From Vicinamibacteria bacterium (GTDB lineage: Bacteria > Acidobacteriota > Vicinamibacteria > Marinacidobacterales > Marinacidobacteraceae), in contig OY821641.1 in assembly GCA_963555995.3 (NCBI GenBank), forward strand, positions 864,001 to 928,000: 64,000 nucleotides of DNA. The letters are read 5' to 3'. Below the pieces are notes generated by a model. The model saw nothing but the letters and a program-made list of their open reading frames with translations, made no database searches and had not been told where the DNA came from. Position numbers and translations under genes: made by a program. Each line of letters begins with the position of its first letter. Positions within the stretch are counted from its first letter, which is position 1. This document shows, one piece after another, positions 36,318 to 60,456 of the stretch.

Positions 36318-36729
36318 CCCGGTTGCTGTGAAAACGCCGTCTGGGCGAAAGGTCAACCAGCGCAAGTCGCGCCGCCGGCTGGGACCGCCGGTCTTCAGAC
36401 CGGCACTGGCGATGCGCCGGGCTGACCCGGCTGCCGGGCGAAAGCTCAACCAGCGCAAGTTGCGCCGCCGGCTGGGAGCGCCGGTCTTCAGACCGGCACT
36501 GGCGATGCGCCGGGCTGACCCGGCTGCCGGGCGAATGGTCAACCAGCGCAAGTTGCGCCGCCGGCTGGGAGCGCCGGTCTTCAGACCGGCACACGCTGCG
36601 CGGCAGCGCAGCGCACGGCACGACTCCGGTCGGCGCGGTGGCGCCCCGCGCCCGGTTCATCACCGCGGGCAGCGACACGACATCCGCGGGCCTTCGGCCC
36701 GCTGTGCCGCTCTGAAGAGCGGCGCTCCC
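36300..36729. repeat. Three tandem ~93-bp REP units ending in a REPIN (36567-36729)
   Basis: GCCGGTCTTCAGACCGGC hairpins at ~36381, 36474 and 36567; closing GCCGCTCTGAAGAGCGGCGCTCCC at 36706-36729. Confidence 0.85.
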
Positions 36730-40627: not shown

Positions 40628-40949
40628 TGGAGCGCCGGCTTCAGCCGGCACAGCCCGCCGGAGGCGGGCGGCGGGAAGGACCTCATCTGCGGTGATGGCG
40701 CGAAGGCCGGGAACGCCGGCTTCAGCCGGCACAGCCTGCCGGAGGCAGGCGGCGGGAAGGACCTCATCTGCCGTGATGGCACGAAGGCCTGGAACGCCGG
40801 TCTCCAGACCGGCACCCGCTGCGCGAAGCGCAGCGGACTGCACGACGCCGATCCGCGCAAAGGCGTTCGACTCTCGGTCCATCACGGCAAACAGCAACAC
40901 GACATCCGCGGCCCGGCGGGCCGCTGTGCCGGCTGAAGCCGGCGCTCCA
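40628..40949. repeat. Tandem ~81-bp REP units plus a REPIN (40790-40949)
   Basis: GGARCGCCGGCTTCAGCCGGC twice, GGAACGCCGGTCTCCAGACCGGC, and a closing GCCGGCTGAAGCCGGCGCTCCA. Confidence 0.8.
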
Positions 40950-42609: not shown

Positions 42610-45600
42610 ATGCACACTGGACGATTTCTTCGCACTTCGGCGGCCGCCGCCATGGCCGTCCTGCTCGCCGCGCCGCTCGCGCTCGGGCAGGGGAGCCATC
42701 GCGACTACGACGAGCACTTCGATGAAGCGAACGTCACGGTTCCGCCGGAGTACACCGAGGACATGCGGTTCCGCTCCGTCGGTTTCACCCGCGGCGGGCG
42801 CTCCACCGCGGCGACGGGAGTTCCGGGCGATCCGCTGACCTACTACTTCGGCGGCACCGGGGGCGGCGTCTTCAAGACGACCGACGCGGGGATCAACTGG
42901 ACGAACGTGAGCGACGGCTTCTTCGGCGTGGGCTCGGTGGGCTCCATCCGGGTGGCCCCCTCGGACACCAACGTCATCTACGTGGGCACCGGCTCCACCT
43001 CCACCCGGGGGAACATCTCGGTCGGGGACGGCATGTACCGCTCCGACGACGCGGGCCGGACCTGGGAGCACATCGGACTCCGGCACGCCGGCCAGATCGG
43101 CGCCCTCGCGATCCACCCGGAGGATTCCGACCTCGTGTACGCGGCGGCGCTCGGCTACATCTTCGGCCCCAACGACGAGCGCGGCATCTACCGGACGAAG
43201 GACGGCGGCGAGACCTGGGAGCAGGTGCTCCACATCTCCGACCGCACCGGTTTCGTGGAGATCCAGATGGATCCCAACAACCCGCGCATCCTCTACGCGG
43301 GCGCCTGGCGCGCCGAGCGGAAGCCGTGGACCATGATCTCGGGCAGCGAGGACGGCGGGATCTTCCGCAGCCGCGATGGCGGGGACACCTGGGAGCGGGT
43401 CGAGAACGGGCTTCCCACCGGCATGATCGGGAAGACCGCGGTCGCCATTTCGGCGGCGAACTCGGACCGCGTCTGGGTTCTCCTCGAAGCCGAAGGGGAG
43501 CGCGGCGGGCTGTACCGCTCGGACGACGGCGGCGAATCGTTCACCCGGATCAACGGCGACGCGGCCCTCCGGCAGCGTCCCTGGTACTACATCCACCTCT
43601 ACGCCGACACCCACGACGAGAACACCGTGTACGTGCTGAACGTGGCCTTCCACAAGTCCATTGACGGGGGACGGACGTTCCCCGAGCGCATCCGGGTGCC
43701 GCACGGCGACAACCACGATCTCTGGATCAACCCGGACAACCCGATGAACATGATCAACGCCAACGACGGCGGCGCCAACGTGTCGTTCGACGGCGGAAAG
43801 AGCTGGACCGACCAGATGGGGCAGGAGACCTCCGAGATGTACCGGGTGTACGTGGACGACCAGTGGCCCTACCGGATCTACGGTTCGCAGCAGGACAACA
43901 GCACCATCTCGGTGCCGTCCCGCGGCGGCTTCAGCGTGACGCCGGACTGGTACCAGGTCGGCGGCTGCGAGAGCGGCCACATCGCGGTGGACCCGCGCGA
44001 CCCGGACATCATCTACGCGGGCTGCTACGGCGGCTCCATCACCCGGGTGAACCGGAAGACAGGCGAGTTCCGGCAGATCCTCCACTACCCGCAGCTCCAG
44101 CTCGGCCAGGCGGCGCGGGACCTCAACTACCGCTTCCAGTGGAACGCGCCGATCCGGCTGTCGCCCCACGACCCGGACATCCTCTACCACGCCTCGCAGG
44201 TGGTCCACATGTCCCGCGACCAGGGCCAGAGCTGGCGGGTGATCAGCCCCGACCTGACCACCAACAACCCCGAGCACCAGGACTACGCCGGGGGGCCGAT
44301 CACCCGCGACGGCACCGGCGTCGAGGTCTACAACACCCTCTTCTCGTTCGAGGAGTCGCCCCACACGCCCGCCGAGCTGTGGGCGGGCAGCGACGACGGC
44401 CGCGTCCACATCTCGCGTGACCGCGGCGACACGTGGACCGAGATCACCCCCGCGGACATGCCCGAAGGGGGCACCGTCAACGTCATCGAGATGTCCTCGC
44501 ACGACCCCGCGCGGGTGTTCATCGCGGTGTACCGCTACCGGGAGAATGACTTCCGGCCCTACATCTTCCGGACGAACGACTCCGGCGCGAGCTGGGACCT
44601 GCTGACCGACGGCACGAACGGCATCCCGCCGACGCACTTCACCCGCGCCATCCGCGAGGACCACGACAAGAAGGGACTGCTCTACGCGGGGACCGAGTTC
44701 GGGCTCTACGTCTCCTTCGACGACGGCGTCCACTGGCAGCGCTTCCAGAACAACCTCCCAATCAGCCCGATCACCGACCTGCAGGTGCACCGCAAGGACC
44801 TGGTGATCGCGACCCAGGGCCGGTCCTTCTGGGTGCTCGACGACCTCAGCCCGCTCCACCAGATCACCGACGAGACGATGGCCGCGGACTCCGTCCTCTA
44901 CGCCCCCCGCACCGCCTACCGGGGCGGCTTCGGCGGCGGCGCCGACATCCGGTACCACCTCAAGGAGCAACCCGAGTCGGCCATCACCCTCGAGATCCTG
45001 GACTCCGACGGCAACCCGGTGCGCAAGGTCACCGGCCAACCCGGCGCGGCGGCCCCGACTGGTCCCGTCTCCCCCTTCGCGGCCTTCTTCGGCGGCGGCC
45101 CGGGCGCCCGGCTCCCGGCCGCGGCGGGGCTCAACGCGTTCCGCTGGAACCTGCGCAGCGAGGGCATCCAGCGCCCCGCCGGCGTCGTCCACTGGGGCGG
45201 CACCCCGGGCCTCTCGGTCCTCCCGGGCGCCTACGAGGTCCGGCTGACCGTCGGCGAGGAGACCCACACCCAGCCGCTCGAAGTGGCGCTCAACCCGAAC
45301 CTCTCCTCCACCGCCGAGGACCTCGCGAAACAGCGCGAGCTCGGCGAGACCGTCGCCGGCGAGATCACCAAGCTCTTCGACGCGCTCACCCGGCTCCGCG
45401 ACGTCAAGACCCAGGCCGGAGACATCGTCGGCCGCCTCACGAAGGCCGGGAAGGCCGACGAAGAGCTCGGCGCCCTCAGCAAGGCGCTCACCGACCGCCT
45501 CACCGAGATCGAGGAGACCATCACCCAGACGAACAGCAAGTCCTCCCAGGACCCGATCAACTTCCCCCCGCAGATTGACAACCAGCTGGTCACCCTCTAC

Positions 45601-45789
45601 GGCTACATCGTCCAGGGCGACTACGAACCCACCGCCGGCGCCTACGAACGCTTCGACGACCTCAAGCCCGGCCTCGACGCCATCCACACCGACCTCGAAG
45701 CCGCCATGACCGAACACCTCACCCCCTTCAACGCCCGCGTAGCCACCCTCGGCATCCCCGCCGTCCTAGTCGCCACCGAGGAGAACTGA
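42610..45789 (+). CDS. Secreted VPS10/BNR (Asp-box) beta-propeller glycosyl hydrolase-like protein
   Basis: Signal peptide and many S/T.DGG.TW Asp boxes; GG.WK-like, H.D.H.LWI.P and Y..Y...QDN motifs. Confidence 0.85.
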   Translation: MHTGRFLRTSAAAAMAVLLAAPLALGQGSHRDYDEHFDEANVTVPPEYTEDMRFRSVGFTRGGRSTAATGVPGDPLTYYFGGTGGGVFKTTDAGINWTNVSDGFFGVGSVGSIRVAPSDTNVIYVGTGSTSTRGNISVGDGMYRSDDAGRTWEHIGLRHAGQIGALAIHPEDSDLVYAAALGYIFGPNDERGIYRTKDGGETWEQVLHISDRTGFVEIQMDPNNPRILYAGAWRAERKPWTMISGSEDGGIFRSRDGGDTWERVENGLPTGMIGKTAVAISAANSDRVWVLLEAEGERGGLYRSDDGGESFTRINGDAALRQRPWYYIHLYADTHDENTVYVLNVAFHKSIDGGRTFPERIRVPHGDNHDLWINPDNPMNMINANDGGANVSFDGGKSWTDQMGQETSEMYRVYVDDQWPYRIYGSQQDNSTISVPSRGGFSVTPDWYQVGGCESGHIAVDPRDPDIIYAGCYGGSITRVNRKTGEFRQILHYPQLQLGQAARDLNYRFQWNAPIRLSPHDPDILYHASQVVHMSRDQGQSWRVISPDLTTNNPEHQDYAGGPITRDGTGVEVYNTLFSFEESPHTPAELWAGSDDGRVHISRDRGDTWTEITPADMPEGGTVNVIEMSSHDPARVFIAVYRYRENDFRPYIFRTNDSGASWDLLTDGTNGIPPTHFTRAIREDHDKKGLLYAGTEFGLYVSFDDGVHWQRFQNNLPISPITDLQVHRKDLVIATQGRSFWVLDDLSPLHQITDETMAADSVLYAPRTAYRGGFGGGADIRYHLKEQPESAITLEILDSDGNPVRKVTGQPGAAAPTGPVSPFAAFFGGGPGARLPAAAGLNAFRWNLRSEGIQRPAGVVHWGGTPGLSVLPGAYEVRLTVGEETHTQPLEVALNPNLSSTAEDLAKQRELGETVAGEITKLFDALTRLRDVKTQAGDIVGRLTKAGKADEELGALSKALTDRLTEIEETITQTNSKSSQDPINFPPQIDNQLVTLYGYIVQGDYEPTAGAYERFDDLKPGLDAIHTDLEAAMTEHLTPFNARVATLGIPAVLVATEEN

Positions 45790-45835
45790 CCCACAGTGCC
45801 CCCGCAGCGCCGTGAGTGAAGAAGGACGCGCCGGC

Positions 45836-46110
45836 TTGGAACGCCGGCTTCAGCCGGCATCGTCCCGCGCCAGCGGGGCGACCGCGTCGCGGTTGGCTGT
45901 CCGGCCCCGCGACGAGACAGCTTGGAGCGCCGACCTCCGGTCGGCATCGCGCGGAAGCGCGAAACAGGAGGAACCACTCCGGAGTTCGGTCCTTCCCGCC
46001 GCCCGCCTTCGGCGGGCTGTGCCGACCGGAGGTCGGCGTTCCAAGCCGGCAGCGCCATCACGGCGCTCGGCCGACCCGCGGGACTGCACTTACACAGCAA
46101 ACCTGCGCCA
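45836..46110. repeat. REP cluster (GCCGGCTTCAGCCGGC and GCCGACCTCCGGTCGGC hairpins)
   Basis: TGGAACGCCGGCTTCAGCCGGC at ~45838; inverted pair TGGAGCGCCGACCTCCGGTCGGC / GCCGACCGGAGGTCGGCGTTCCA at ~45923-46043. Confidence 0.75.
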
Positions 46111-46176
46111 TGGTGCTGCGCGATGCCCGGTTGGGGCGGCCGGGGAGACGGAGCCGATGACCCGAGGAGTCGAAGA

Positions 46177-46572
46177 ATGGACGATTTAATCGCTGCCATC
46201 GTGGATGTGCGCGACAAGCTCCGCCGGGGCGTGTTTTCCAACGAAGATCAGGTATCGAAGGGAGTGGTCATGCGACTGCTTCAGCAACTCGGCTGGGATG
46301 TCTACGACCCGACCCAAGTGAGTTCCGAGTTCAAGATTGGCAACAGGAAGGTGGATTACGCCTTGAGGCACGGACCCTTGGGATCCGCCGTTCTGATTGA
46401 GGTCAAGGATGTGGGCAAAGCAACCCCGGCGGGCGAAGATCAGCTCTTTGACTACTGCTTCCGCGAAGGTGTCCCACTGGCGGTGTTGACCGATGGTGGC
46501 GTGTGGAACTTCTACCGGTCGGCTGGCCGGGGCAGCTACGAGCAGAGGCGCTTCGCCGTAACGGCCCTAGAG
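46177..46572 (+). pseudogene. HsdR_N-like PD-(D/E)xK nuclease, 5' part, interrupted by IS256
   Basis: NE..V...V...LL..LGW, EF....RKVDYAL, LIEVK, QLF.Y and LTDG..W.FY; the reading frame runs into the IS end. Confidence 0.8.
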
Positions 46573-47963
46573 GAGAGCTATGTCCGAAAGTGGGTGACGG
46601 CATGATCAGGCGGCGGCGCGGGTTTCGGTTTCGTCGGCCTGGATGCCGTCGGTGAACTGGACGCCCTCGATGACCTGGGTCAGTTTGTCGTAGCCGTTGA
46701 GCCGACGCCAGGTTTCGCTGGCGGCGGTGACCAGCTTGAAGACCATCGCCAGCGCGGTTCGGTGGGAGAGGCATCCCTTGCTGCGAACGGTGCGATGGCG
46801 GACGGTGGCGAACACGCTCTCGATGGGGTTGGTGGTGCGGATGTGCTGCCAGTGCTCGGCGGGGAAGTCGTAGAACGCGAGCAGCGCCTCCTGGTCCTTG
46901 GTCAGGCAACGAACGGCTTCCCCGTATTTCGCCTGGTATTTGGCGGCGAAGGTGTCGAGCGCCTTCTCCGCCTTCTTGCGGCTCTCCGCCATCCAGATCT
47001 GGTGGAGGTCCTGCTTCGCGTTGCGTTGCCGGGACTTGGGCAACTTGTTCAGCACGTTCGCCGTCTTGTGGACCCAGCAGCGCTGCCGGCGGGTCTTGGG
47101 GAAGACCTCGTCCAGCGCCTTCCAGAAGCCCAGCGCACCATCCCCGATCGCCAGCTCCGGGGAGACTTCGAGGCCGCGCCCACGCAGGTCCACCAGTAGC
47201 TCCCGCCAACTCTGGGCGCTCTCCCGGAACCCGGCCTGGAACCCCAACAGTTCCTTCTTGCCCTCCGGGGTGGCGCCGATGAGCACCAGAACGCACTGCT
47301 TCTCGTCTTCCAGCCGGCCCTGCAGGTAGATCCCGTCCGCCCAGACGTAGACATACCGCCGACCCGAGAGATCCCGCCCCCGCCAGCGCTCGTGCTCCGC
47401 CTCCCATGCCGACTTCAGCCGGCCGATCACCCCCGGCGACAGCCCCGATGCCCCCGAGCCCAACAGCTCCGACAGCGCCTCCCCGAAGTCCCCGCTCGAA
47501 ACCCCCAGCAGATACAGCGTCGGCAGCGCCGCGTCCAGCGAGCGCGTCCGCCGCGCGAACCGCGGCAGAAGCCTCGACGAGAACCGAATCCGGTCCTCCC
47601 CGCTGTCCCCGCGATCCCGGACCTTCGGCCGCCGCACCGGAACCGGCCCGATCCCCGTCAGGATCGTCCGCTCCGGGCCGTGGCCGTGACGCACCAGACG
47701 CCGAACTCCGGTTGCCGTCCGATGATCCTCGTACGCCGCCAGCAGGGCAGCCACCTCCGCCTCCACGGCGTGCCGCACCAACTCGCGGGCGCCCGCTCGA
47801 AGAACCTCCGTCAGCGGGTCCTCAACCCCCTCTGGCGAGGGAAGGCGAACAACAGTACTCTCCTTCATGGCGTATCACTCCTCCTTGGAGATGTGGAAGG
47901 TCAGCAACCCCCACGATACGCCACCCCCTTCTCAGCCGTCACCCACTTTCGGACATAGCTCCC
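46573..47963 (-). mobile_element. IS256-family insertion sequence
   Basis: About 29-bp terminal inverted repeats (GAGAGCTATGTCCGAAAGTGGGTGACGGC / GCCGTCACCCACTTTCGGACATAGCTCCC) enclosing the transposase. No target duplication is visible. Confidence 0.92.
46606..47868 (-). CDS. IS256 (Mutator-type) DDE transposase
   Basis: YVYVWADG, GFRES..SW, IGDGALGFW, QRCWVHK, F.DFPAEHW.HIRTTNPIES. Confidence 0.96.
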   Translation of the reverse strand: MKESTVVRLPSPEGVEDPLTEVLRAGARELVRHAVEAEVAALLAAYEDHRTATGVRRLVRHGHGPERTILTGIGPVPVRRPKVRDRGDSGEDRIRFSSRLLPRFARRTRSLDAALPTLYLLGVSSGDFGEALSELLGSGASGLSPGVIGRLKSAWEAEHERWRGRDLSGRRYVYVWADGIYLQGRLEDEKQCVLVLIGATPEGKKELLGFQAGFRESAQSWRELLVDLRGRGLEVSPELAIGDGALGFWKALDEVFPKTRRQRCWVHKTANVLNKLPKSRQRNAKQDLHQIWMAESRKKAEKALDTFAAKYQAKYGEAVRCLTKDQEALLAFYDFPAEHWQHIRTTNPIESVFATVRHRTVRSKGCLSHRTALAMVFKLVTAASETWRRLNGYDKLTQVIEGVQFTDGIQADETETRAAA

Positions 47964-48618
47964 ATCACGGTGCGCCGAGACGCTGAGCCGCTATCTCGCT
48001 TTCGAGGCTGTTCGGTCGGGTCAGTTCGAGAAAGACGTGCAGGGTGACTACGAGGGGCACCAGCGTCAGATCGTGGCGAAGGAACAGATTCCGGACGTGT
48101 TCCGACTGTTGATCGAAGGGGCGGACGTACGCGTCGTTGCCGCAATTGCGGAGGAGGTGGAGGAGCACTGCGGTATTCGTCCGGAGGAGGAGACGGTTCG
48201 TCGCTATCTGCGGCGTGTGGTTCTGTCCAATCCGGAGCCGAGGCCCGTGCCAACACCACAACCCGGTCCTACGCTTGGTAAGCGTCCGGAACTGACCGTT
48301 GGTGGTGAGACGAAAACCTTCCGGACCAACCGGGAATGCCTGATTGAGGTCTTTGAGACTCTGGCGACACGTGATCCGACGTTTTGCGAGCGTTACAGCA
48401 CCAGACGCGTTCACGTGCGTCGACGTCGTCAAGACTTGTCGCCGAGGCAACAGAAATACGCGCAGCAACTCCGGAGTGGCTGGTGGATCGGGACAGGTGG
48501 CCAGATCGAAACGAAGTACCAGCAAGTGCGAACTGCCTGTGATGTGGCGGGGATCGAATACGAACGTGATCTGACGGTACTGTTCGTCAAGGGGCCGAAA
48601 TGGAGCCGTGCCCGTTGA
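47964..48618 (+). pseudogene. 3' part of the IS-interrupted nuclease gene (linker plus putative SeqA-C-like domain)
   Basis: Open frame from 47965 (SRCAETLSRYLAFEAVRSG...) to the stop at 48618; lower GC like the 5' part. Confidence 0.7.
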
Positions 48619-48745
48619 AGTGAATCCGGAGTAGCTTGCGCAACGCGGCGGCCTGCCGACTCCAAGGCCGCCTAGGCGTCACCACTGGTATTCGGCCCGC
48701 ACCTGAACACACGACCCGGAAGGAGATGAGGGGCAGGAGTGAGCG

Positions 48746-48925
48746 ATGAGCCCGCGCATCGCACGCCGGAGCGCGCCGGGGCGACTCGGAGCGATAGTCG
48801 GAACGCGCTTCGCGGCTGGCCGCGCCCTCCATCCGGACCTGATCCGGCCGCCCCGGGTCCAAGTTCGGCAATGTCTTCGGTATCGTCAGTCCCGCCACTG
48901 CCGCCTTCGAAACGGCCCCGACCGA
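48746..48925 (+). pseudogene. Frameshifted 5' remnant of the LD-carboxypeptidase gene
   Basis: 48833-48925 aligns by eye with 53266-53357 (PDLIRPPR...VFGIVSPATAAFET) with one extra base. Confidence 0.7.
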
Positions 48926-48985
48926 TTCGCGGCTCCCTCAATCCGGGGGCCGGTGTAGTGTCTTCCGCCGGAGAGGCCCCGCCAT

Positions 48986-49264
48986 TTGAGGAAATCAGAT
49001 TCGCCCGCGCAGACCGGCTCGGAACCGATTCCCGGGTCATTCCGTCCGGGTCGGCTCTTTGGGAGTACGTTGGATGGCGTGCGGGTCATTGCCTCGTTCG
49101 CCGTCAATCTCTTTGGTTCCGGCTCTCGGGGCCGGTACGAGTCCTGGTACCGGCCGACAAGCCTCGCCGGCGACTTCGAGCGCGTTGGCCAGGACTTCTG
49201 GGCGGCTATCGAAGCGAATGGCCCACGCGTTGAAGAAGTTGAAGAAGAACAGAGGGTCCGGTAG
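48986..49264 (+). CDS. Small hypothetical protein (LAGDFERVGQDFW motif); start uncertain
   Basis: Plausible amphipathic helix and acidic tail; lower GC than the core genes. Confidence 0.45.
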   Translation: MRKSDSPAQTGSEPIPGSFRPGRLFGSTLDGVRVIASFAVNLFGSGSRGRYESWYRPTSLAGDFERVGQDFWAAIEANGPRVEEVEEEQRVR

Positions 49265-49375
49265 CGAGCGCCCACTCGCGCGAGAACCGTCGCCGGGTTC
49301 GTCCGTTGGGGTCGGCCCGGATCCTTCGGGCTCCACGATTGGCGATCCACCGCGCCGTTGATGTGGGGCGGGACC

Positions 49376-50401
49376 TCAGTCGGAGCGTCGCGCGCGGTAG
49401 GCCTGGTCGGGGTGGTTGGGGTTCTCCGGATACTTGAGGACCAACGCGCCCTCGTCCACCAGCACGCGGAGGTGGCGCTGGACGAGGCTCGGCTGGTGCA
49501 TCTGGAGCCAGCGCGCCAGGTCGGCGGCCGTGGTCCACTCGCGGAACTGGCAGATCTGCTGGATCAAGGGGTGCAGGACCTGCCGCGGTGTCCGCTGACC
49601 GAGTGCCAGCACGTTGGGTCGCAGAACCGGTGGCAAGCCTTCGAGGCGTGCTTCCCGTACGGCCCCGGGCGTCCTGGACTCCGCCTCGGCCGGGGCGGGG
49701 GAGCGTTCGGCCTTCTCCGGGGTGGGCGCCGGAACCGGAGCGCGCGGCTCCGGTTCGGAAGGCTCCTCCTCGGGAGGTTCCGGTGCGGGCTGCGGCGGCG
49801 GACGGCTGGGGACCTCCGGGCGGGGTGCGGGTTCTGGCGCGGGCTTCCGCGTTTCGGCGGTCGACGCTCTGCCGGCCGGGGGAAGGGGCTTCGCCGCCGG
49901 CTGGTCCTGTTCCCCCGAGTCGTCGCGGCTCTCCCGCTCGGGGAGGATGGACAGGGGCTCGTCGGCGTGGGAGCGGGGGCCGAAGAAGGAGAGGAACGTC
50001 CGCAGTACTCCGGCGCCCGCCTCCATCTGCGCGCCGATCCGTTTGCCGGCGTCCCCCGTCTCCTTGATCGCCTCCTGGGTTCTGGTGGACTTGCCCTCGG
50101 GGTCGCGGAACGCGCGCGCTCCGGCGGCGGTCCGGGCGCCCAGCGCCTGGAGCAGCGCGCCGACCCAGGCCAGCGCGCGGGCGAGGTGGCGGAGCGCCTT
50201 GACGGTCGGTTCGCGCTGCCTCTTGAGGAACGTCCACATCTTCGGGATGCGGGAGAACAGGAAGGGGACCCAGCTCCACGCTTGGCGGAGCCGGGGACGG
50301 GGTTTGCGAACCCAGGCGCGGATCGCCTCAAGACCGGGAGGTGGCTCCTCCGGCTCCTGAAACAGGCGGAAACGGGAGGGATCGTCGGCCACGGACTCCA
50401 T
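49376..50401 (-). CDS. Hypothetical protein: amphipathic N-terminus, Pro/Glu linker, C-terminal winged HTH (Fic-like C-terminal type)
   Basis: C-terminal I.QIC..REWTT..DLARWL......L...HLR.LVDEG.L.LKYPENPNHPDQAY pattern, recalled from the tails of Fic and AlbA/ATP-binding proteins. Confidence 0.65.
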   Translation of the reverse strand: MESVADDPSRFRLFQEPEEPPPGLEAIRAWVRKPRPRLRQAWSWVPFLFSRIPKMWTFLKRQREPTVKALRHLARALAWVGALLQALGARTAAGARAFRDPEGKSTRTQEAIKETGDAGKRIGAQMEAGAGVLRTFLSFFGPRSHADEPLSILPERESRDDSGEQDQPAAKPLPPAGRASTAETRKPAPEPAPRPEVPSRPPPQPAPEPPEEEPSEPEPRAPVPAPTPEKAERSPAPAEAESRTPGAVREARLEGLPPVLRPNVLALGQRTPRQVLHPLIQQICQFREWTTAADLARWLQMHQPSLVQRHLRVLVDEGALVLKYPENPNHPDQAYRARRSD

Positions 50402-50436
50402 GCGTCAGCGCGCCGTGGAATCGTACCGGTTGTCGA

Positions 50437-50921
50437 GGGAACTCCACGCACTAACCGACTCGGAGGGTGGGAAGTCCACGCATTACGGGGGTCTGTGGGC
50501 GGGGAACTCCATGCATTGGGAGAGCCGGTTGGCGGGAACTCCCAGCACTGGCCGGATCTGCGGACGGGAGGTCCACGCACTGCGGGGGTCTGTTGACCGG
50601 GGACTCCATGCAGTAGGAGAGCCGGTTGGCGGGAACTCCCAGCACTGGCCGGATCTGTGGGCGGGAGGTCCACGCACTGCGGGGGTCCGTTGGCGGGGGA
50701 CTCCATGCAGTAGGAGAGCCGGTTGGCGGGGACTCCCAGCACTGGCCGGGTCTGCGGGCGGGAAGTCCACGCACTGCGGGGGTCTGTTGGCGAGGGACTC
50801 CATGCAGTAGGAGAGCCGGTTGGCGGGAACTCCCAGCACTGGCCGGGTCTCCGGGCGGGAACTCCACGCACTACGAAGGTCTGCTGGTGGGGGACTCCAT
50901 GCATTAGGAGACTCGGTTGGC
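50437..50921. repeat. Tandem array of 15 units of 32/33 bp forming a 97-bp higher-order repeat (x5)
   Basis: Core GGGRACTCC(A/C)NGCA. Equivalent units start at 50437, 50534, 50631, 50728 and 50825. Confidence 0.92.
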
Positions 50922-51055
50922 GCAACGGGGAGCGAAACTCCCAGCGCTGATTTGTCGCGTGGTGGAACGCCGCGCTTAATGGGGCAACGCCACATGGCCA
51001 GCTGCCGAAAAAGAGTCCTGTGGTTCCGCCAGGGGCCGCGAGGGCGCCAGCGGCT

Positions 51056-51323
51056 TGGAGCGCCGGCTTCAGCCGGCACCCGCTGCGCGGAGCGCAGCGG
51101 ACTGCACGACGGAGGCCCGCGCGATGGCGTTCGACCCCTGGTCCATCACCGCAAACAGCGCGACGACGTCCGCGGGCCTTTGGCCCGCGGTGCCGGCTGA
51201 AGCCGGCGTTCCAAGCCGTTTCCGCCACAACGCCACACGGATTGGCGCAACGCGATGCGGCCACGTAACACCGGGAGTGTCGCCCGCTGTGCGGGCGATG
51301 CCGGTCTGAAGACCGGCGCTCCC
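51056..51323. repeat. REPIN (51056-51213) plus a solo REP (~51300-51323)
   Basis: TGGAGCGCCGGCTTCAGCCGGC...GCCGGCTGAAGCCGGCGTTCCA, then GCCGGTCTGAAGACCGGCGCTCCC. Confidence 0.8.
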
Positions 51324-51360
51324 CCCTGGCGCCGGTCGCGCGGATGGATAATCCCGGTTG

Positions 51361-52665
51361 ATGACTCGGGACGTGCTTTCCGAACTGCTGCGGGACGGGG
51401 AGAACTCCGGGGTGGAGTTCAAGCGGGACAGCGTGACGCCGGAGAAGCTCGCCCGGGAGATGGCGGCGCTGCTGAACCTCGAAGGCGGGGTGATCCTGCT
51501 GGGGGTCGAGGACGACGGCGCGGTCTCCGGGCTCCGGCGCGATCCGAAGAAACGCGAGGAATGGGTGATGGAGGTGGCCAGGACCCATCTCCGCCCGGGC
51601 GTCATTCCCTTCTGGGAGACCAGCGAGATGCCGGACGGCAACGTCGTCGGGGTGATCTCCCTGCCCGCCGACGCCCCCGACAAGCCGTACAAGGCGAAGC
51701 GCGGCTCGGCGTGGATGACGCAGGTGCGGGTGGGCACGACGACCCGCGACGCCAGCGACGACGAGGAGATGCGCCTCTACGCGCAGTCCCGGCGGCTGCT
51801 CTATGACCACAAGCCGGTTCCGGGCGCGATGCTCGACGACTACGACATGCGGCGGCTCACCAACTACTTCCGCGACATCCGGCAGCAGGAATGTCCGGAA
51901 CTCGCAGACCTCGAGGGCTGGTCGCGGTTGCTTGTGAACGTCGATCTCGCCTTCGAGGATCGCGGCCGGGCGCTTCCCAGCGTCGGTGGACTGCTGCTGT
52001 TCGGCAAGGACCCCAATCGGTGTCTTCCCCAGGCAGGTATTACCGCCGTCGCGTTCGGCGGGGTCGAGAAGGACTACGACATCAAGGCGCGCGCGTTCCT
52101 GCGCGGTCCGCTGGTTTCGCTGTTCGCTCCGGACGACGATCCGTACCGGGGCCGCTACCCGAAGCTCGCGAGATCCTTTTCCGAGCCGGCGGCGGTCATC
52201 GAGGTCGGAGTGATCGAGAAGGCGCTCGACTTCGTGGCGCGGGCGACCGACGTGGAGGGTTTCGTGGACCGAACCGGACGCCGCCGGGAGCGCTGGGACT
52301 ATCCGCTGGATGCGGTGCGCGAAGCGGTCGTGAACGCTGTCGCCCACCGGGACTACACCATCGGCGGGACGGACATCGAACTGGCGATCTACCCGGATCG
52401 CCTGGAGGTCATTTCGCCGGGCCGGCTACCGAACACGGCGACCGTGGAGAAGCTGCGCCTCGGATACCGGTCTCTTCGGAACGACGTGATCCGCGATTTG
52501 CTGACCGCCTACGGTTACATCGAGGCGCTCGGCCTCGGCATTCCGCGCAAGATCATTGCGGGGATGCACGATCACAACGGCACCGATCCGGATCTGATCG
52601 AGGAGGAGAGCCGCTTCATCGTGCGCCTTTGGAAGGAGCGCGAGTCCCACGGCGACCGAGGTTGA
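51361..52665 (+). CDS. Schlafen/AlbA_2 domain plus HATPase_c_4 (RecG C-terminal-like) protein
   Basis: GENSGVEFKRD, A.LLN.EGG.ILLGVEDDG, REAVVNAVAHRDY, DRLEVISPG.LP, RN and E.LG.GI motifs. Confidence 0.88.
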   Translation: MTRDVLSELLRDGENSGVEFKRDSVTPEKLAREMAALLNLEGGVILLGVEDDGAVSGLRRDPKKREEWVMEVARTHLRPGVIPFWETSEMPDGNVVGVISLPADAPDKPYKAKRGSAWMTQVRVGTTTRDASDDEEMRLYAQSRRLLYDHKPVPGAMLDDYDMRRLTNYFRDIRQQECPELADLEGWSRLLVNVDLAFEDRGRALPSVGGLLLFGKDPNRCLPQAGITAVAFGGVEKDYDIKARAFLRGPLVSLFAPDDDPYRGRYPKLARSFSEPAAVIEVGVIEKALDFVARATDVEGFVDRTGRRRERWDYPLDAVREAVVNAVAHRDYTIGGTDIELAIYPDRLEVISPGRLPNTATVEKLRLGYRSLRNDVIRDLLTAYGYIEALGLGIPRKIIAGMHDHNGTDPDLIEEESRFIVRLWKERESHGDRG

Positions 52666-52732
52666 GGAACCAGCGGAACGGATCGAGGCGCCATCGGATC
52701 GCGGATCGCGGCATCCGTCGTCGCGGCGGCCG

Positions 52733-53186
52733 GGCTGCGCGACCTTCATCTGGGGGACGTTAGGATTGCCGCGTGGGTCGCTTGGACCCTGATGCTTCCG
52801 CGCCGTGCGGAACGGACACCTTGATGCTTGACGATTCCATGAACCCGGAGGGGTTCGATGGCCGGCAACCGGCTGGAGGAAGTGTGAAGAGGAAAGACTG
52901 GATTCCGTTCGTTTCGCTCGGAGTCTTCATGGCGGTGATGAACCTCACCATCGCAGGGTTCGGTTTCGAGCGGATCAACCGGATCGAGGTCCGGATAGAC
53001 CGGCTCGATGCCCGCATAGACCGGATCGAGGCGCGGATCGAGGCACGCATGGATCGCCTCGAGGACAAACTGAGCGCTCTGGAACAGCGGGTCTCCCGGA
53101 TCGAGGGCGTCCTGAGGATCCGGCTCGACCCGACCGAGCCGCCCGCGGACGGTGTCTCCGGCGCGCCACCGGAGTAGCGGCGCCCC
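52733..53186 (+). repeat. Direct repeat copy 1 (promoter, leader and small ORF) upstream of the LD-carboxypeptidase
   Basis: Near-identical to 54249-54686 across the leader and TM-coding part. Confidence 0.9.
52884..53177 (+). CDS. Small TM plus coiled-coil protein, copy 1 (97 aa)
   Basis: GGAGGA SD then GTG; hydrophobic WIPFVSLGVFMAVMNLTIAGFGF, heptads RIDRLDA/RIDRIEA and VSRIEG. Confidence 0.75.
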   Translation: MKRKDWIPFVSLGVFMAVMNLTIAGFGFERINRIEVRIDRLDARIDRIEARIEARMDRLEDKLSALEQRVSRIEGVLRIRLDPTEPPADGVSGAPPE

Positions 53187-54207
53187 CCGGCTCACCCGGC
53201 GTGCCGCGATGGGGCTCCTCGGCGGCGCGTTGTCGGCCCCGCTGGCGGTGGCGCGAGTTGCGCAACCGGACCTCATCCGGCCGCCGCGTATCCGGCCCGG
53301 CGACGTGTTCGGCATCGTCAGCCCCGCCACCGCCGCCTTCGAGACCGACCCGACCGAGATCTTCGCGGACGCCTTCCGGGCGGTCGGGCTCGAACCGCGG
53401 CTCGGGTCGAACTACTACCGGCGGCGCGGCTACTTCGCCGGGAGCGACGCCGAGCGGGCGGCGGACATCATGGAGTTCTTCGCCGACTCCGAGGTGAAAG
53501 GCGTCTTCGCCCGGGGCGGCTGGGGGTCGGCGCGCGTCCTGCCGCACCTCGACTACGGCGTGATCCGGGCGAATCCCAAGGTCCTGCTCGGCTACAGCGA
53601 CGCCACCGCGCTCCTCACCGGGGTCCACGCGAAGACGGGGCTGATCGTCATGCACGGCCCCGGGCCGGGGAACCGCTTCTCGACCGAACACTTCCGCCGG
53701 ACCCTGATGGAAGGCGAAGCGGACCTGCTGGAGAACCCGGTAGGGGACCCCGGGAACCACATCGTGCCGCGGGAGCACCGGGTCCGCACCATCACCGGCG
53801 GGCGGGTGACGGGACCGCTGCTCGGCGGCAACCTGACGGTGCTGACCGCGATCATGGGGTCGGAGTACCTGCCGGACTTCACCGGCTCGATCCTCTTCCT
53901 CGAGGACGTGGACGAGGCGGTGTACCGGGTGGACCGGATGCTGACCACCCTGAAGCTCGCCGGGGTGCTGGACCGGATCGCGGGGTTCATCTTCGGGCGC
54001 TGCACGGACTGCGACCCGGGATCGGGGTTCGGCTCGCTCACCCTGGAGCAGGTGCTCGAGGACCACATCGCTCCGCTCGGCATCCCGGCCTTCCGGGGGA
54101 GCATGATCGGTCACATCCCCGAGCAGTTCACGCTTCCCATCGGGGGCCGCGCGGAAATGGACGCCGACCACGGCACGATTCGCCTCCTCGAGCCCGCCGT
54201 CGGGTAA
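53152..54207 (+). CDS. S66-family LD-carboxypeptidase (LdcA/MccF-like) with Tat-like signal
   Basis: LTRRAAMGLLG, GIVSPA, AGSD.ERA.D, RGGWGS.R, GYSDAT (nucleophile Ser), GGNL, LFLEDV.E and GH...Q..LPIG. Confidence 0.92.
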   Translation: MSPARHRSSGAPRLTRRAAMGLLGGALSAPLAVARVAQPDLIRPPRIRPGDVFGIVSPATAAFETDPTEIFADAFRAVGLEPRLGSNYYRRRGYFAGSDAERAADIMEFFADSEVKGVFARGGWGSARVLPHLDYGVIRANPKVLLGYSDATALLTGVHAKTGLIVMHGPGPGNRFSTEHFRRTLMEGEADLLENPVGDPGNHIVPREHRVRTITGGRVTGPLLGGNLTVLTAIMGSEYLPDFTGSILFLEDVDEAVYRVDRMLTTLKLAGVLDRIAGFIFGRCTDCDPGSGFGSLTLEQVLEDHIAPLGIPAFRGSMIGHIPEQFTLPIGGRAEMDADHGTIRLLEPAVG

Positions 54208-54248
54208 GGCTGCCCCCCAACCGGTTCCGCCGGCGGCGTCTTCCGGAC

Positions 54249-54686
54249 GGCTGCGCGGCCTTCACCCGCGGGTGGTGAGGTTAGGATTGCCGGGTGGGTC
54301 GCTTGGACCCTGACGCTTCCGCGCCGTGCGGAACGGACACCTTGATGCTTGACGATTCCATGAACCCGGAGGGGTTCGATGGCCGGCAACCGGCTGGAGG
54401 AAGCGTGAAGAGGAAAGACTGGATTCCGTTCGTTTCGCTCGGAGTCTTCATGGCGGTGATGAACCTCACCATCGCAGGGTTCGGTTTTGAGCGGATCAAC
54501 CGGCTCGAGGCCCGGATGGACCGGATCGAGGCGCGCATGGACCGCCTGGAGGAAAGGCTGAGCGCCCTGGAACAGCGGGTCTCCCGGATCGAGGGCGTCC
54601 TGATGATCCGCGTGGGTCCGACCGAGCCGGATCCCGCGCCGCCCGCGGACGGCGCCTCCGGCGCGCCACCGGAATAGCGGCGCCCG
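54249..54686 (+). repeat. Direct repeat copy 2, downstream of the LD-carboxypeptidase
   Basis: See 52733-53186. Confidence 0.9.
54405..54677 (+). CDS. Small TM plus coiled-coil protein, copy 2 (90 aa)
   Basis: Same N-terminus as copy 1 with a shorter coiled coil. Confidence 0.75.
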   Translation: MKRKDWIPFVSLGVFMAVMNLTIAGFGFERINRLEARMDRIEARMDRLEERLSALEQRVSRIEGVLMIRVGPTEPDPAPPADGASGAPPE

Positions 54687-54754
54687 CCGTTCCACCGGCG
54701 GGCCGGCCCACCGGGAGGGCTGACCAGCGGTTCACGCCGACTCGGCGCGTTGTC

Positions 54755-54791
54755 TTGACAGAACGATATAACTAGGGTTATAGTTATATTG
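54755..54791 (+). promoter_or_regulatory. Sigma70 promoter with overlapping ArsR operator palindrome
   Basis: TTGACA (54755-54760), N18, TATAGT (54779-54784); inverted repeat ATATAACTA-N6-TAGTTATAT in a locally AT-rich patch. Confidence 0.85.
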
Positions 54792-54793
54792 TC

Positions 54794-55180
54794 ATGACGA
54801 CAACGGCCCCGCTCAACGAGGAACTCGCGGCGACGAGTCTGGGGGCGCTCGGGAACCCGACGCGCCTGCGGCTCTACCGGCTGCTGGTAAGGGCCGGACC
54901 GTCCGGTCTCCCCGTGGGGACGCTCGTCCGGACGCTCGGCGCGCCGGCTTCCACGCTCGCCCACCACCTCGCCTGCCTGACCCGGGCCGGCCTCGTGGAG
55001 CAGGAGCAGCGGGGACGGGAGGTGCGTTCGCGTCCCGATTTCGCCGCCATGACCCGGCTCATGGACTTTCTGACCGCCGAATGCTGCACGGGTGCGCCTT
55101 CGGCCCCCGCGACGGAGGAAACCGACGGTGTCCCGACTGCAACTTGCCCTGAATGTGACGAACCTCGAGAAGGCGATTGA
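54794..55180 (+). CDS. arsR: ArsR/SmtB-family repressor (C-terminal CC type)
   Basis: ALGNPTRLRLYRLLV.AG..G..VG, STLAHHL..L..AGLV and FLTAECC. Confidence 0.9.
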   Translation: MTTTAPLNEELAATSLGALGNPTRLRLYRLLVRAGPSGLPVGTLVRTLGAPASTLAHHLACLTRAGLVEQEQRGREVRSRPDFAAMTRLMDFLTAECCTGAPSAPATEETDGVPTATCPECDEPREGD

Positions 55181-55568
55181 CTTCTACTCGCGGATGTTCG
55201 CGACCGCGCCGGCGAAGGTGAAGCCCGGCTACGCGAACTTCGCCATCAGCGACCCGCCGCTGAAACTCGTGCTCTTCGAGGGTTCGGAGGGGGCGACGAT
55301 CAACCACCTGGGCGTGGAGGTGGAGGCGACCCGGCAGGTGCGGGCGGCCGAGGGACGGCTGCGGGAGTCGGGGCTCGAGACGACCGGAGTGGAGGACACC
55401 GTGTGCTGCTACGCGGAGAAGACGGAAACCTGGGTGACCGATCCGGACGGGGCGCGCTGGGAGTGGTACGTGAAGTCGCGGGACGCGGAGCGGTTGCAGA
55501 ATGTGGTGATTTCGGCGGACGGGGCCGACGTGGGGGCGGACATCGCGAAACAGACCTGCTGTACCTGA
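55128..55568 (+). CDS. ArsI/CadI-family VOC metalloenzyme
   Basis: SRLQLALNV, KPGYANF...DPPLKLVL, NHLGVEV and CCYA...TWV.DPDG..WE.Y (vicinal Cys pair). Confidence 0.9.
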   Translation: MSRLQLALNVTNLEKAIDFYSRMFATAPAKVKPGYANFAISDPPLKLVLFEGSEGATINHLGVEVEATRQVRAAEGRLRESGLETTGVEDTVCCYAEKTETWVTDPDGARWEWYVKSRDAERLQNVVISADGADVGADIAKQTCCT

Positions 55569-55570
55569 CG

Positions 55571-56285
55571 GCGCACCCCGCCGGGCATGAAAGCGGCGGG
55601 AACGGCTGGGAGCGCCGCTCTTCAGAGCGGCACAGCGGGCCGAAGGCGCGCGGATGTCGTATCGCTGTCTGCGGGGATGAACGGACAGCAGAGCACCACC
55701 GCGCCGCTCGACATGGCGCCGTGCGCTGCGCTATCGCGCAGCGCGTGCCGGTCTGCCGTTGTGAACGGCCCCACCGGGAGAAACCCCCATGTGCGTGTCC
55801 TGTTGCGCACCCCACCGGGCATGAAGACGGCGGGAACGGCTGGGAGCGCCGCTCTTCAGAGCGGCACAGCGGGCCGAAGGCGCGCGGATGTCGTATCGCT
55901 GTCTGCGGGGATGAACGGACAGCAGAGCACCGCCGCGCCGCTCGACATGGCGCCGTGCGCTGCGCTATCGCGCAGCGCGTGCCGGTCTGCCGTTGTGAAC
56001 GGCCCCACCGGGAGAAACCCCCATGTGCGTGTCCTGTTGCGCACCCCGCCGGGCATGAAAGCGGCGGGAACGGCTGGGAGCGCCGCTCTTCAGAGCGGCA
56101 CAGCGGGCCGAAGGCGCGCGGATGTCGTATCGCTGTCTGCGGGGATGAACGGACAGCAGAGCACCGCCGCGCCGCTCGACATGGCGCCGTGCGCTGCGCT
56201 ATCGCGCAGCGCGTGCCGGTCTGAAGACCGGCGCTCCCAGCCAGCGGCGCAACGGATGCTGGTTGCATTTTCACAGCAACTGCTA
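55571..56285. repeat. Triplicated 234-bp REPIN-derived tandem repeat
   Basis: Units start at 55571, 55805 and 56039. Each opens with GGGAGCGCCGCTCTTCAGAGCGGC; only the last has the full closing REP (56215-56238). Confidence 0.9.
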
Positions 56286-57698
56286 GGCCCGTGCTTCTAC
56301 AGCGAGTTCGATGCGGTGCGGAAGCGCCGGCTGCCCCGGAGCGCGGGCGACGTTCGCGGTTGACGGGAGGCGTTGGCGAAGGACGGCCAGCACGTCCGGC
56401 CAATCTTTCTCGTGGGAACGCGCTTCGACCCGAGCGGTGTCCGTGATTTCGGCGGCGAGGGACTGGAGGGCGCCTTCGACCCGGTCGAGCACGAAGTGGG
56501 TCTGCGCCCGGACGTGGTCGCCGCCGATGGGGCGGCCGCGATGGGTGGGGGTGACCCCGGCAATCCGGATTTCGTTCCCGGCGCGGACCGCTTCCGCGAA
56601 ACCCGCCTCCGGGTCCAGTTCCACTCCGCGCGCCGTTTCCCGCACCGCGTAGGGCGCCGGGAAGTGGGTGACGTGGTGGTGGAGGTCTCCCGATGCGGTC
56701 AGGTAGGGCGGCCTCCGGTATTCGTCCCCGCAGTCGCCGGGAATCGGGTCGAGCCCGGCCTGCGCCTCGGCGAGTTCCGCGCGGGACCGCTCGTCGAGCG
56801 CGAAGTCGAAGAGCCGCAGGTTGTCCGCGACGTGGGTCCGTTCCCCGGGACGGGCTCCGACGATCACCCCGGCCACCGCCGGCGCTTCCAGCACGTGGCG
56901 CGCGGCCACGTTGGCGATGGACACGCCGTAGTGGTCCGCGACCCGGCGCGCGGCGCGCAGCACCGCCTGGAAGCGGTCCCAGCCGCCCGCCTGGTCCATG
57001 AAGCGGCGGTATTTCATCTGCGACCAGGTGAGCGCATCGTCCATCGGAGGTTCCGGAGCGTCGAGCCAGCGGTCGCTCAGCAGCCCCCCGGCCAGCGTCC
57101 CGTACGCCAGCAGGCCGACGCCGTGGCGCCCGCAGACCTCGGTCATCCGCCCCGCGGCCCGGCGGTCCACCAGCGAGTAGCAGACCTGGTTCGAGACGAG
57201 GGGGATGCCGCTCCGGAGCGCGAGATCGAGATGGACCGCGTCGAAGTTGGTGACCCCGAGGTGACGGATCCGGCCCGAATCCCGGATCTCCATCAGGTGG
57301 AACAGGCAGTCCAGCCAGCCGGGGTGGGGATAGCTCCACGCGTGGAACTGGAGGAGGTCGAGGCGCTCCGTTCCGATCCGGTCGAGCGATCGCCGGACCG
57401 CGTCTTCCACCTCCGGGCGGGAGGCGACCCCGGGCTCGGGCACCCACTTGGTGAACACCCGAACTTCGGGACGGCGTCGGTGCAGGGCGCCGGCGATCAG
57501 CTCCGCCGAGCCGTAGTGGTCGGCGACGTCGAACGTGGCGAAGCCGGCGTCCACCGCGGGTTCGAGCGCCCGGGCCGCCCCCTCCGTTTCGAGCGCGGTC
57601 CCGCCCCGCTCCTGGTCGGCGACCTGCCAGAGCCCGGTCAGGACCCGGGAGACCTCCAGCCCGGCGGCCAGCCGGGCGCGCTCCACCGGCCCGCTCAC
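56283..57698 (-). CDS. Aldo/keto reductase fused to a C-terminal RidA/YjgF-like domain
   Basis: GLWQ, FDVADHYG.AE, FTKW, DLLQFH, GVTNFD, SNQV.YSL.DRR and YGTLAGG; tail AVRAGN.I.IAG...AQT.FVLD..E.AL. Start at GTG 57698. Confidence 0.85.
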   Translation of the reverse strand: MSGPVERARLAAGLEVSRVLTGLWQVADQERGGTALETEGAARALEPAVDAGFATFDVADHYGSAELIAGALHRRRPEVRVFTKWVPEPGVASRPEVEDAVRRSLDRIGTERLDLLQFHAWSYPHPGWLDCLFHLMEIRDSGRIRHLGVTNFDAVHLDLALRSGIPLVSNQVCYSLVDRRAAGRMTEVCGRHGVGLLAYGTLAGGLLSDRWLDAPEPPMDDALTWSQMKYRRFMDQAGGWDRFQAVLRAARRVADHYGVSIANVAARHVLEAPAVAGVIVGARPGERTHVADNLRLFDFALDERSRAELAEAQAGLDPIPGDCGDEYRRPPYLTASGDLHHHVTHFPAPYAVRETARGVELDPEAGFAEAVRAGNEIRIAGVTPTHRGRPIGGDHVRAQTHFVLDRVEGALQSLAAEITDTARVEARSHEKDWPDVLAVLRQRLPSTANVARAPGQPALPHRIELAVEARA

Positions 57699-59682: not shown

Positions 59683-60456
59683 CTAGCGCGAGGCCGCTTC
59701 GGCCGGCTCGGTGGTCCATTCCGCATGTCGCACGCACGCGTCGATGCGAATGCCTCGGACCGTGATCTTGGCGTCGGACCTGTCGGTCGCGATGCGGGCG
59801 ACTTCCTCTTTGTTCACGAAGCACGGTAGGACGGGAGCATCGCTGGAGAAGTGCTCGGTGGACAGATCCGCGATCGATTCGAAGATCGCCGTCGGGATTT
59901 CCAGCAGTTCGTAGCGCCTTGGAATTTCGTTCCCCGTCCGGAACGCCCGCAGCATCACGATGGCATCCACGGCCGCCCGGTAGTCCTCGAACAGGTGGGT
60001 CAGCCGCTCCTTCCGTTCCTTTGCCTTGCGCACATCCTGGATCCACGCTGCTTCGGTGAGCTTCGAGATGTGGGCGCTGTTCTTGGAGAGGTTCCGGGCC
60101 GCCGTGGACTTCAGGGACAGCCTGCGTGGGAGCCCGTCGTCCGGCGTTACTTCGAGGTCCACGAACCTCCTGGTGGGAGAACCCGGCGGATCCAGAGACC
60201 AGCCGACCGATTCGCAGGCGTTGCGGAAGACCGTTTCGAAGCTGGTCAGTTGCAGCGGTTCGCGTGTGGTTCCGTGATGAAGCGACAGCGCCAGACTGAA
60301 GTACTCCATCCAATCCCCGGATTCGGTAATCCAGGTGCCGGACTCCAGGACGCCGGGGCGTGGCGGGTCCGAGAGTGCGTCCACGACGCGGGCCACGAAC
60401 TTGACGCCCGCCGGCGACAGGTGGTCCAGTCTGGCCTTGAGCTGCTGGAGAGTCAC
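59683..60456 (-). CDS. Type II restriction endonuclease, SmaI-like
   Basis: HH...PL....FE, D...LSLKSTAARNLSK...HISKLTE, YELLEIP and CVRHAEW resemble recalled R.SmaI segments; overlaps the MTase stop codon. Confidence 0.7.
   Translation of the reverse strand: MTLQQLKARLDHLSPAGVKFVARVVDALSDPPRPGVLESGTWITESGDWMEYFSLALSLHHGTTREPLQLTSFETVFRNACESVGWSLDPPGSPTRRFVDLEVTPDDGLPRRLSLKSTAARNLSKNSAHISKLTEAAWIQDVRKAKERKERLTHLFEDYRAAVDAIVMLRAFRTGNEIPRRYELLEIPTAIFESIADLSTEHFSSDAPVLPCFVNKEEVARIATDRSDAKITVRGIRIDACVRHAEWTTEPAEAASR

Follow-up and report, generated by a model that had tools for sequence, protein, structure and literature searches.

Helically phased DNA arrays accompany a family of winged helix-turn-helix proteins in Marinacidobacteraceae and may serve as their binding platforms

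The window considered here is the whole stretch of 64,000 nucleotides from position 864,001 to position 928,000 of contig OY821641.1 (assembly GCA_963555995.3), which belongs to a Vicinamibacteria bacterium of the family Marinacidobacteraceae (Acidobacteriota). Within it lies a phased non-coding array (50437..50922, minus strand; positions are those of the window). On one side of the array is a minus-strand gene for a protein of 341 amino acids (49376..50401), and on the other a divergent, plus-strand Schlafen gene (51361..52665). An initial annotation, made from the sequence alone, assigned a winged helix-turn-helix (wHTH) domain to the minus-strand product and suggested that this product binds the array to control or recruit the Schlafen effector. 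A repetitive RNA and a decayed coding linker were offered as alternatives. The platform idea has held up, the Schlafen gene has dropped out of it, and what emerges appears to be a new family-level system of protein/array pairs, real and conserved, with a predicted function.

The array has 15 cores with starts from 50437 to 50890. Their spacings are 32, 33, 32, 32, 33, 32, 32, 33, 32, 32, 33, 32, 32 and 33 bp, a pattern that gives a higher-order period of 97 bp. Tandem Repeats Finder reports 50437-50922 as 5.0 copies of this period with 89% matches and a score of 720. Hence the 15 units of 32/33 bp first described are borne out, and so are, on comparing the linkers, three linker types in alternation, each recurring every third unit. 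The core was originally given as GGGRACTCC(A/C)NGCA; it is conserved, but this consensus is slightly over-strict, since 5 of the 15 units deviate from it, with GGGA(A/G)GTCCACGCA or with CCCAGCA replacing the CCANGCA variants. In the orientation of the wHTH gene the core reads approximately TAGTGC(G/A)TGGAGT(T/C)CC. A degenerate core (50393..50403, minus strand) does hold the minus-strand ATG start codon of the wHTH gene, as had been noticed. It is placed 46 bp from the first array core, off the 10.7-bp phase, and is possibly an operator copy. A sixteenth core, also degenerate, had been overlooked (50933..50946, minus strand); it lies 43 bp further on, inside a 74-bp element that is present at 8 loci.

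The array is real and not an assembly artefact, because contigs of public sequencing runs reproduce most of it. Those of run X1 match 49300-50548, 50623-50823 and 50817-51077 with zero differences, and run X5, from a separate study, covers 50228-50554 with 16 differences. This confirmation is pieced together from several contigs, none of which covers the array from end to end, and X1 could itself be the source sample. Run X2 joins 50549 to 50795 and represents a shorter array variant in one strain.

The array-associated protein is built of three parts, all encoded on the minus strand. An N-terminal domain (about residues 17-137; 49991..50353) has Trp/Arg-rich amphipathic helices and then a helical hairpin, and is a predicted peripheral membrane binder. 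It is followed by a disordered proline-rich linker (about residues 141-240; 49682..49981), whose length varies among homologues. The C-terminal part (49388..49669) is a wHTH akin to Fic-like_C, in which a basic arm precedes helix 1; it also has a recognition helix and a wing. This last assignment agrees with the initial annotation and is backed by a confident model (predicted local distance difference test, pLDDT, 91-96 over residues 251-340), together with a match to Fic-like_C (PF21247; E 0.012, 15.9 bits) that falls under the curated cut-off of 27 bits. The six paralogues of this genome score 18.0-23.6 bits on the same profile, all under that cut-off. In the reverse direction, a profile of the family wHTH recovers true PF21247 genes at E 1e-4 to 1e-7. 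The top Foldseek row for the wHTH is the Fic protein Dde_2494 (4RGL; root-mean-square deviation 2.1 over 54 columns, with a weak E of 0.014).

The N-domain belongs to no Pfam or NCBIfam family and is itself narrowly distributed. Its profile gives strong E-values for its own family only, namely 44 clusters with E no higher than 1e-10 in a set of 1.84 billion representatives; weaker matches were rejected as coiled-coil and tape-measure noise. Models of moderate confidence show a Trp-rich helix and a long helical hairpin, for which fold searches return generic helical hairpins only (best Z 10, with no gap to unrelated rows). Among 51 N-domains the best hydrophobic moment has a median of 0.63, against a 95th percentile of 0.57 in controls, and the median net charge is +13; the typical member is without a transmembrane-grade segment. 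The protein is thus predicted to join a DNA-binding domain to an amphipathic helix without a transmembrane segment. A match to PspM, seen in one of 22 members and weak (E 0.0066), was not accepted. PADLOC and NCBIfam gave nothing for the wHTH protein, and viral contigs contained no relative. In six loci (L010, L029, L036, L039, L049 and L106) the N-domain and the wHTH stand in different reading frames, through assembly error, decay or phase variation.

The same genome encodes five full-length paralogues of the protein at 26-31% identity, and profile searches yield no more copies. All six genes adjoin a phased array, upstream in four cases and downstream in two, and each array has its own core word. 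A motif scan of the genome picks out 233 sites, grouped into 25 sub-arrays and 8 word families, with words of 15-17 bp. The spacings are 20-22 or 31-33 bp in 196 of 208 cases. They correspond to about 2, 3 or 5 helical turns, and with a repeat of 10.7 bp their phase is close to zero; where an array is mixed, 21 and 32 bp alternate, with no intermediate spacing. Only 62 of the 208 are multiples of 3. The core of the window forms arrays at two other chromosomal sites, of 8 and about 12 units, which adjoin a type I hsdR gene and a dehydrogenase gene.

Seven of the 25 sub-arrays adjoin a family gene and the other 18 are gene-free, with no remnant of a family gene within 1.5 kb of any of them. Gene-free arrays occupy intergenic gaps, mostly between convergent genes and sometimes beside repetitive extragenic palindromic (REP)-like elements. 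Their neighbours are restriction-modification, Fic, DarTG or insertion-sequence genes, or housekeeping genes. Since they keep core and phase while their linkers diverge, selection seems to act on them. Two gene-free word families, E and G (G000:C1:114454-114787, 686950-691988 and 2814199-2814600), resemble words that adjoin family genes in genomes G017 and G022 and in many members of the genus. In motif-guided scans the array loci are spread round the chromosome more evenly than random (coefficient of variation 0.47-0.53, P up to 0.0015). No Rep, ParA, ParM or TubZ partner is present among the 95 neighbour genes scanned, and a search for terminal or target-site repeats round the module turned up 8-mers only.

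Conservation in relatives can be followed quite closely. Of 24 other genomes in the same family, 18 encode the protein, and searches of 16 genomes from two sister families found none; related records bear the titles Acidobacteria, Vicinamibacteria or Candidatus Marinacidobacterium. The wHTH profile brings in weaker matches too, some of which are AlbA fusions. Homologues were expected to have arrays of their own, and a phased array was indeed scored for 58 of 66 non-redundant family genes (19 genomes), in a search reaching 1.1 kb upstream and 0.7 kb downstream. Setting aside about 3 doubtful positives (the second gene of L128, L104 and L125), the figure becomes about 55. Among 150 random windows 6 score an array, and 4 of these 6 are family arrays themselves. 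The eight misses comprise two genes at contig ends, four with irregular or more distant arrays and two with none. Arrays of the window word occur in 5 of the 24 relatives and in none of the 16 outside genomes; the reversed control pattern never occurs. Homogenised arrays of 32-bp units are present across species, and copy number and subfamily content differ between species. Most cognate arrays stop short of the conserved N-domain by about 100-300 bp on its upstream side, and upstream arrays mostly carry the word in the sense orientation of the gene, whereas several subfamilies have downstream arrays only, and downstream arrays occur in both orientations.

A few loci are unusual. At L126:4415-5492 there is a 54-unit array, mostly with 19-bp spacing, and a Fic gene lies between it and the divergent family gene; this is the only array seen that is clearly off the 21/32 pattern. 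In L104, L132, L136 and L127, long arrays of up to 60 units run straight into wHTH fragments that have no N-domain, which suggests deletions by recombination through the arrays. The fragments of L104 and L132 belong to a different subfamily.

Each subfamily has a characteristic word that its members share. The word table used to compare words with proteins leaves out 12 of the 66 genes, which had no array, met a contig end or were truncated or doubtful, and the tree leaves out a further gene that lacks the N-domain; five word frames were re-aligned in a second pass, and the frames of L034 and L043 stayed imperfect. After removing overall distance, the partial correlation in 9-residue windows is 0.39 for the basic arm before helix 1, 0.31 for the recognition helix and 0.30 for the wing, with a median of 0.11 over 198 windows. 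The four genes with the word of the window share a P-N wing and are rejected as one clade (approximately unbiased test, p-AU 5.5e-53). Therefore the word was kept or regained together with the shared wing while close sisters changed both. Taken with the near-constant presence of a phased array beside homologues, these patterns favour the suggestion that the array is a platform bound by the wHTH protein. We are rather confident that each paralogue binds its own arrays through its own word, in a sequence-specific and probably cooperative manner. It is likewise likely that the copy beside the gene limits the expression of that gene.

Proteins with Fic-like_C (PF21247) are the closest wHTH proteins to ours by profile and fold, and they too have repeats that adjoin the domain. 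Of 32 Fic or AlbA genes with this domain (28 from a phylum search of 251 genomes and four relatives), 30 have at least 3 copies of a DNA word just before it; among control windows 6 of 54 do. The spacings are 12 bp (55 cases), 11 bp (15) and 21 bp (9), with 7 others. In L145, L157, L163 and L165 all spacings are 11 bp, and because such spacings shift the peptide frame while the DNA word repeats, the repeating entity is DNA and not peptide. Locus L142 shows a 12/21/21 pattern, which finds an echo in four non-coding array families, where a GAC is conserved some 12 bp ahead of the core. In Fic and AlbA genes of other Acidobacteriota (L144-L171 and L140-L143) the word is spaced by 11 or 12 bp and appears to differ with the recognition helix. 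We infer that phased repeats in cis are the targets of this class of wHTH; the repeats within Fic and Schlafen coding sequences are probably binding sites lying in those very genes. The two arrangements differ in that the Fic-like_C proteins have an enzyme partner and 3-5 repeat copies, at 11-12 bp, within the coding sequence, while the repeats of the window family are longer, dispersed and non-coding, with a spacing of 21 or 32 bp. No paper treating the Fic or Schlafen coding repeats as DNA sites was found in a literature search that most subscription journals fell outside.

What could such a platform be for? Our leading suggestion, still a tentative one, is that the array is a platform on which the wHTH protein clusters membrane-binding helices. 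The wHTH would contact its own word through the basic arm, the recognition helix and the wing, and the array copy beside the gene would also restrain its expression. Some 10-25 copies of the protein would line up along one face of the array DNA. Their many weak amphipathic helices, each on a long linker, would then meet the membrane together, and these N-terminal helices would pin a stretch of the chromosome to the inner membrane. Gene-free arrays would act as additional anchor points round the chromosome, and the Schlafen gene would play no role. Given binding, we rate at about even chances the idea that phasing presents many weak amphipathic helices to the membrane and that gene-free arrays are further anchors.

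Several observations weigh against this suggestion. The match between word and protein may owe much to shared descent, because gene and array are physically linked and are inherited together. One window in the N-domain reaches 0.31, equal to the recognition helix, and L043 has a recognition helix identical to that of the window protein with a different word. A correlation with a His/Cys position holds in 50 of 53 rows but comes down to 1-2 independent changes, and the tree does not support the nested placement of L006, a candidate reversion or independent switch (p-AU 0.34). Two genes, in L036 and L112, are without an array, and conversely arrays persist where no matching gene is found: families E and G in this genome, and one array family in the near-complete genomes G009 and G014. 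The even spacing of loci is not robust, as it loses significance with a motif-blind detector (P 0.05-0.19 here and 0.08-0.24 in G014). For G014, of which both scans cover the first 2.0 of 3.56 Mb, the motif-guided value (P 0.02-0.08) takes no account of an empty tail of 484 kb. Nucleic acid or protein, and not lipid, could be the ligand of the basic N-domain. Finally, a conflict system suits the patchy distribution, the many specificities and the neighbours in defence islands better than a housekeeping one does.

The main rival to the tether takes up this last point. According to it, the N-domain is an effector that damages membranes, and the arrays serve as a DNA antidote on which the protein is parked, to be released when the locus is lost or when a phage degrades the chromosome; gene-free arrays would be an extra sponge or immunity against incoming copies, and new words would escape that immunity. 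Fic and Schlafen, the other partners of this wHTH, are effector domains. Restriction-modification, PIN, Fic, DarTG and insertion-sequence genes are frequent near genes and arrays, the variation in copy number and subfamily content between species fits, arrays outlast genes, and the N-domain is a basic amphipathic helical hairpin. Nevertheless, a linker of 100-150 residues would let a DNA-bound copy still reach the membrane, and a sponge has no need of strict phasing on one face. PADLOC gives no match, the folds of pore toxins and ESCRT-III hairpins match no better than any helical hairpin, and many arrays lie between housekeeping genes. On balance we hold this rival to be unlikely, yet worth keeping in view. 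Quite improbable, in our opinion, is an array that is an autoregulatory operator only, with an N-domain that oligomerises and with neutral gene-free arrays spread by recombination with intergenic repeats. The distance of most cognate arrays from the N-domain, the core over the start codon in the window, and the convergent gaps and REP-like neighbours of gene-free arrays all suit it. Subfamilies with downstream arrays only do not, nor does the retention of core and phase in gene-free arrays with diverged linkers, and arrays of 15-60 units go far beyond the needs of an operator.

The remaining explanations become progressively less likely in the order in which we take them, starting from the operator. 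That the array is transcribed and cut into unit RNAs which bind the protein, as in type III toxin-antitoxin systems or guide arrays, seems very improbable. Sense orientation of the word in most upstream arrays, and conserved cores with variable linkers, would agree with it, but the spacings track the helical repeat of DNA, downstream arrays lie in both orientations, the fold z-score is -1.8, and linkers within an array are near-identical, unlike diverse guides. Rfam gives no match over 45000-57000, and scans for sigma-70 promoters and for terminators found none. The repetitive RNA of the initial annotation is therefore a weak proposal. Its other alternative, that the array is a neutral, decayed coding linker of a Fic-wHTH or AlbA-wHTH gene, is already largely refuted and has a slimmer chance still. 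A real relationship exists: Fic and AlbA genes carry repeats before the same wHTH, and the GAC that precedes the core by about 12 bp in four array families is reminiscent of the 12+21 spacing in L142, so that common ancestry is plausible. The direction, however, was reversed. The S-x-H reading is on the strand opposite to the wHTH gene and hence wrong for its linker, the low share of spacings divisible by 3 and the homogenised 32-bp-unit arrays across species do not look like decay, and none of the 18 gene-free arrays has a gene remnant nearby. Since this wHTH class probably binds phased repeats in cis, the S-x-H linkers are better seen as relatives of the array than as its decayed source. 

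Least probable of all, with hardly any chance in our estimate, is a single defence module of array, wHTH protein and Schlafen protein, in which the wHTH replaces a missing tail. The genes are adjacent and divergent in the window, and the Schlafen/AlbA_2-HATPase_c_4 product has an intact Ex4ExK motif (E15, E20 and K22). It qualifies as a prokaryotic Schlafen protein (pSlfn with a kinase-like domain) by its Slfn domain and Ex4(E/D)xK, the motif that defines the pSlfn active site in the available part of PMC13056530. Domain search agrees with the initial annotation that it has no HTH match. This missing tail needs no partner, because Schlafen-kinase fusions without HTH are the commonest prokaryotic Schlafen type, at 34.0% (PMC13056530, same part). 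The proposed control or recruitment of Schlafen finds no conserved linkage behind it. AlbA matches occur in only 2 of 21 family loci with flanks of up to 6 kb, at about 2.4 and 5 kb and 29-34% identity, and within 1.5 kb of 11 other AlbA homologues (46-89% identity) there is no family gene in any case; one of these 11 has an unrelated repeat with all spacings divisible by 3. Two unrelated dispersed palindromic repeats, similar to REP or to miniature inverted-repeat transposable elements (MITEs) and outside the module (51020..51345), separate the array from the Schlafen gene: 51020-51230 is present at 202 genomic loci and 51265-51345 at 46. Judged by this genomic context, the Schlafen gene is a chance neighbour and a bystander to the array and the wHTH gene. 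Related tandem clusters of the REP/MITE-like elements are located at 23200-23364, 36343-36592, 40629-40815 and 55571-56223.

Known systems offer several partial parallels to the proposed tether. Arrays of the iteron or parC type (RepE and iterons, ParR and parC, lambda O) are direct repeats at whole helical turns beside the gene for the binding protein, with autoregulation. The repeats of our family likewise stand at whole helical turns beside a putative binding-protein gene, but they are chromosomal, with many copies per genome (25 sub-arrays on one chromosome), have GC-rich linkers, and lack a Rep protein or partition nucleoside triphosphatase among the 95 neighbours. REP repeats and bacterial interspersed mosaic elements (BIMEs) form dispersed intergenic clusters, often between convergent genes; the window arrays, in contrast, are direct, non-palindromic, helically phased and tied to a cognate wHTH gene. 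The window array differs from arrays of clustered regularly interspaced short palindromic repeats (CRISPR), tandem interspaced guide RNA (TIGR) arrays and type III toxin-antitoxin arrays in having no Rfam match, linkers that recur every third unit and a wHTH protein without a PADLOC match.

Among membrane-binding DNA-binding proteins, RocS of Streptococcus pneumoniae has the same three kinds of part, a wHTH, a helical oligomerisation region and an amphipathic helix, and its membrane binding needs multivalency, a single helix being insufficient (PMC11500499, in part). The order of domains is reversed in RocS and its wHTH is of the MerR type; the available part of PMC11500499 describes no cognate phased array or paralogues with different words. 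RicO of Staphylococcus aureus, which combines a sequence-specific DNA-binding domain with an amphipathic helix as our family does, bridges several chromosomal sites to the membrane, and its ricS sites are, in the portion of the preprint available, nine single 18-bp sites near the origin without repeats (bioRxiv 10.64898/2026.03.06.710092). Our family, by comparison, has arrays of tandem, phased repeats that fall into eight word families and are spread over the entire chromosome. Noc of Bacillus subtilis resembles it in its N-terminal amphipathic helix and its own dispersed NBS sites (PMC7333895, in part), and RacA of the same species, like the proposed tether, binds repetitive centromere-like sequences (ram) and tethers the nucleoid (PMC11500499, same part). 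As these partial accounts have it, Noc is ParB-like and RacA has a MerR-type fold and uses DivIVA; neither domain is found in the window family. Pfam and NCBIfam matches give no sign of homology between the window protein and RocS, RicO, Noc or RacA.

A few other features of the window and of the genome deserve mention. Two near-identical small genes (52773-53177 and 54294-54677) have a hydrophobic N-terminus, 21-bp coiled-coil repeats, weak XhlA/DUF7310 matches and a common upstream sequence, and flank an LD-carboxypeptidase gene. A type I restriction N-terminal-like gene (45922-48618) appears to be split by an insertion sequence (46606-47868), its remainder likely being at 48037-48618. A SmaI-like restriction endonuclease adjoins an N4/N6 DNA methyltransferase at 59683-61523. 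Elsewhere, G000:C1:1462147-1466199 contains 67 repeats with a 61-bp period, probably a CRISPR array, and at about 3.3-3.5 Mb of G000:C1 cumulative G minus C falls sharply, by about 24,000 within 200 kb, perhaps because of very large strand-biased genes or an island.

A more general suggestion can be made, though we regard it as doubtful. Winged helices of the Fic-like_C type may be self-addressing modules, each evolving with a phased word and assembling its fusion partner on the array. In this family of Acidobacteriota there would be 6-10 orthogonal protein/array pairs per genome, which either pin the whole chromosome to the membrane or park a membrane toxin on DNA until the genome is cut, the DNA array being the antitoxin. 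No description of the protein family or of protein/array pairs was found in the literature search, with the same restriction on subscription journals. Whatever their function is, a protein family and at least a dozen protein/array pairs are now defined. They amount to a natural code linking wHTH residues to words of 15-17 bp, with possible use as orthogonal DNA addresses. The intragenic binding sites in Fic and Schlafen genes, if true, would mean that a common class of defence effectors has a general mode of control. Should either the tether or the DNA antidote prove correct, these bacteria would have a new way of organising their chromosome or of sensing its integrity.

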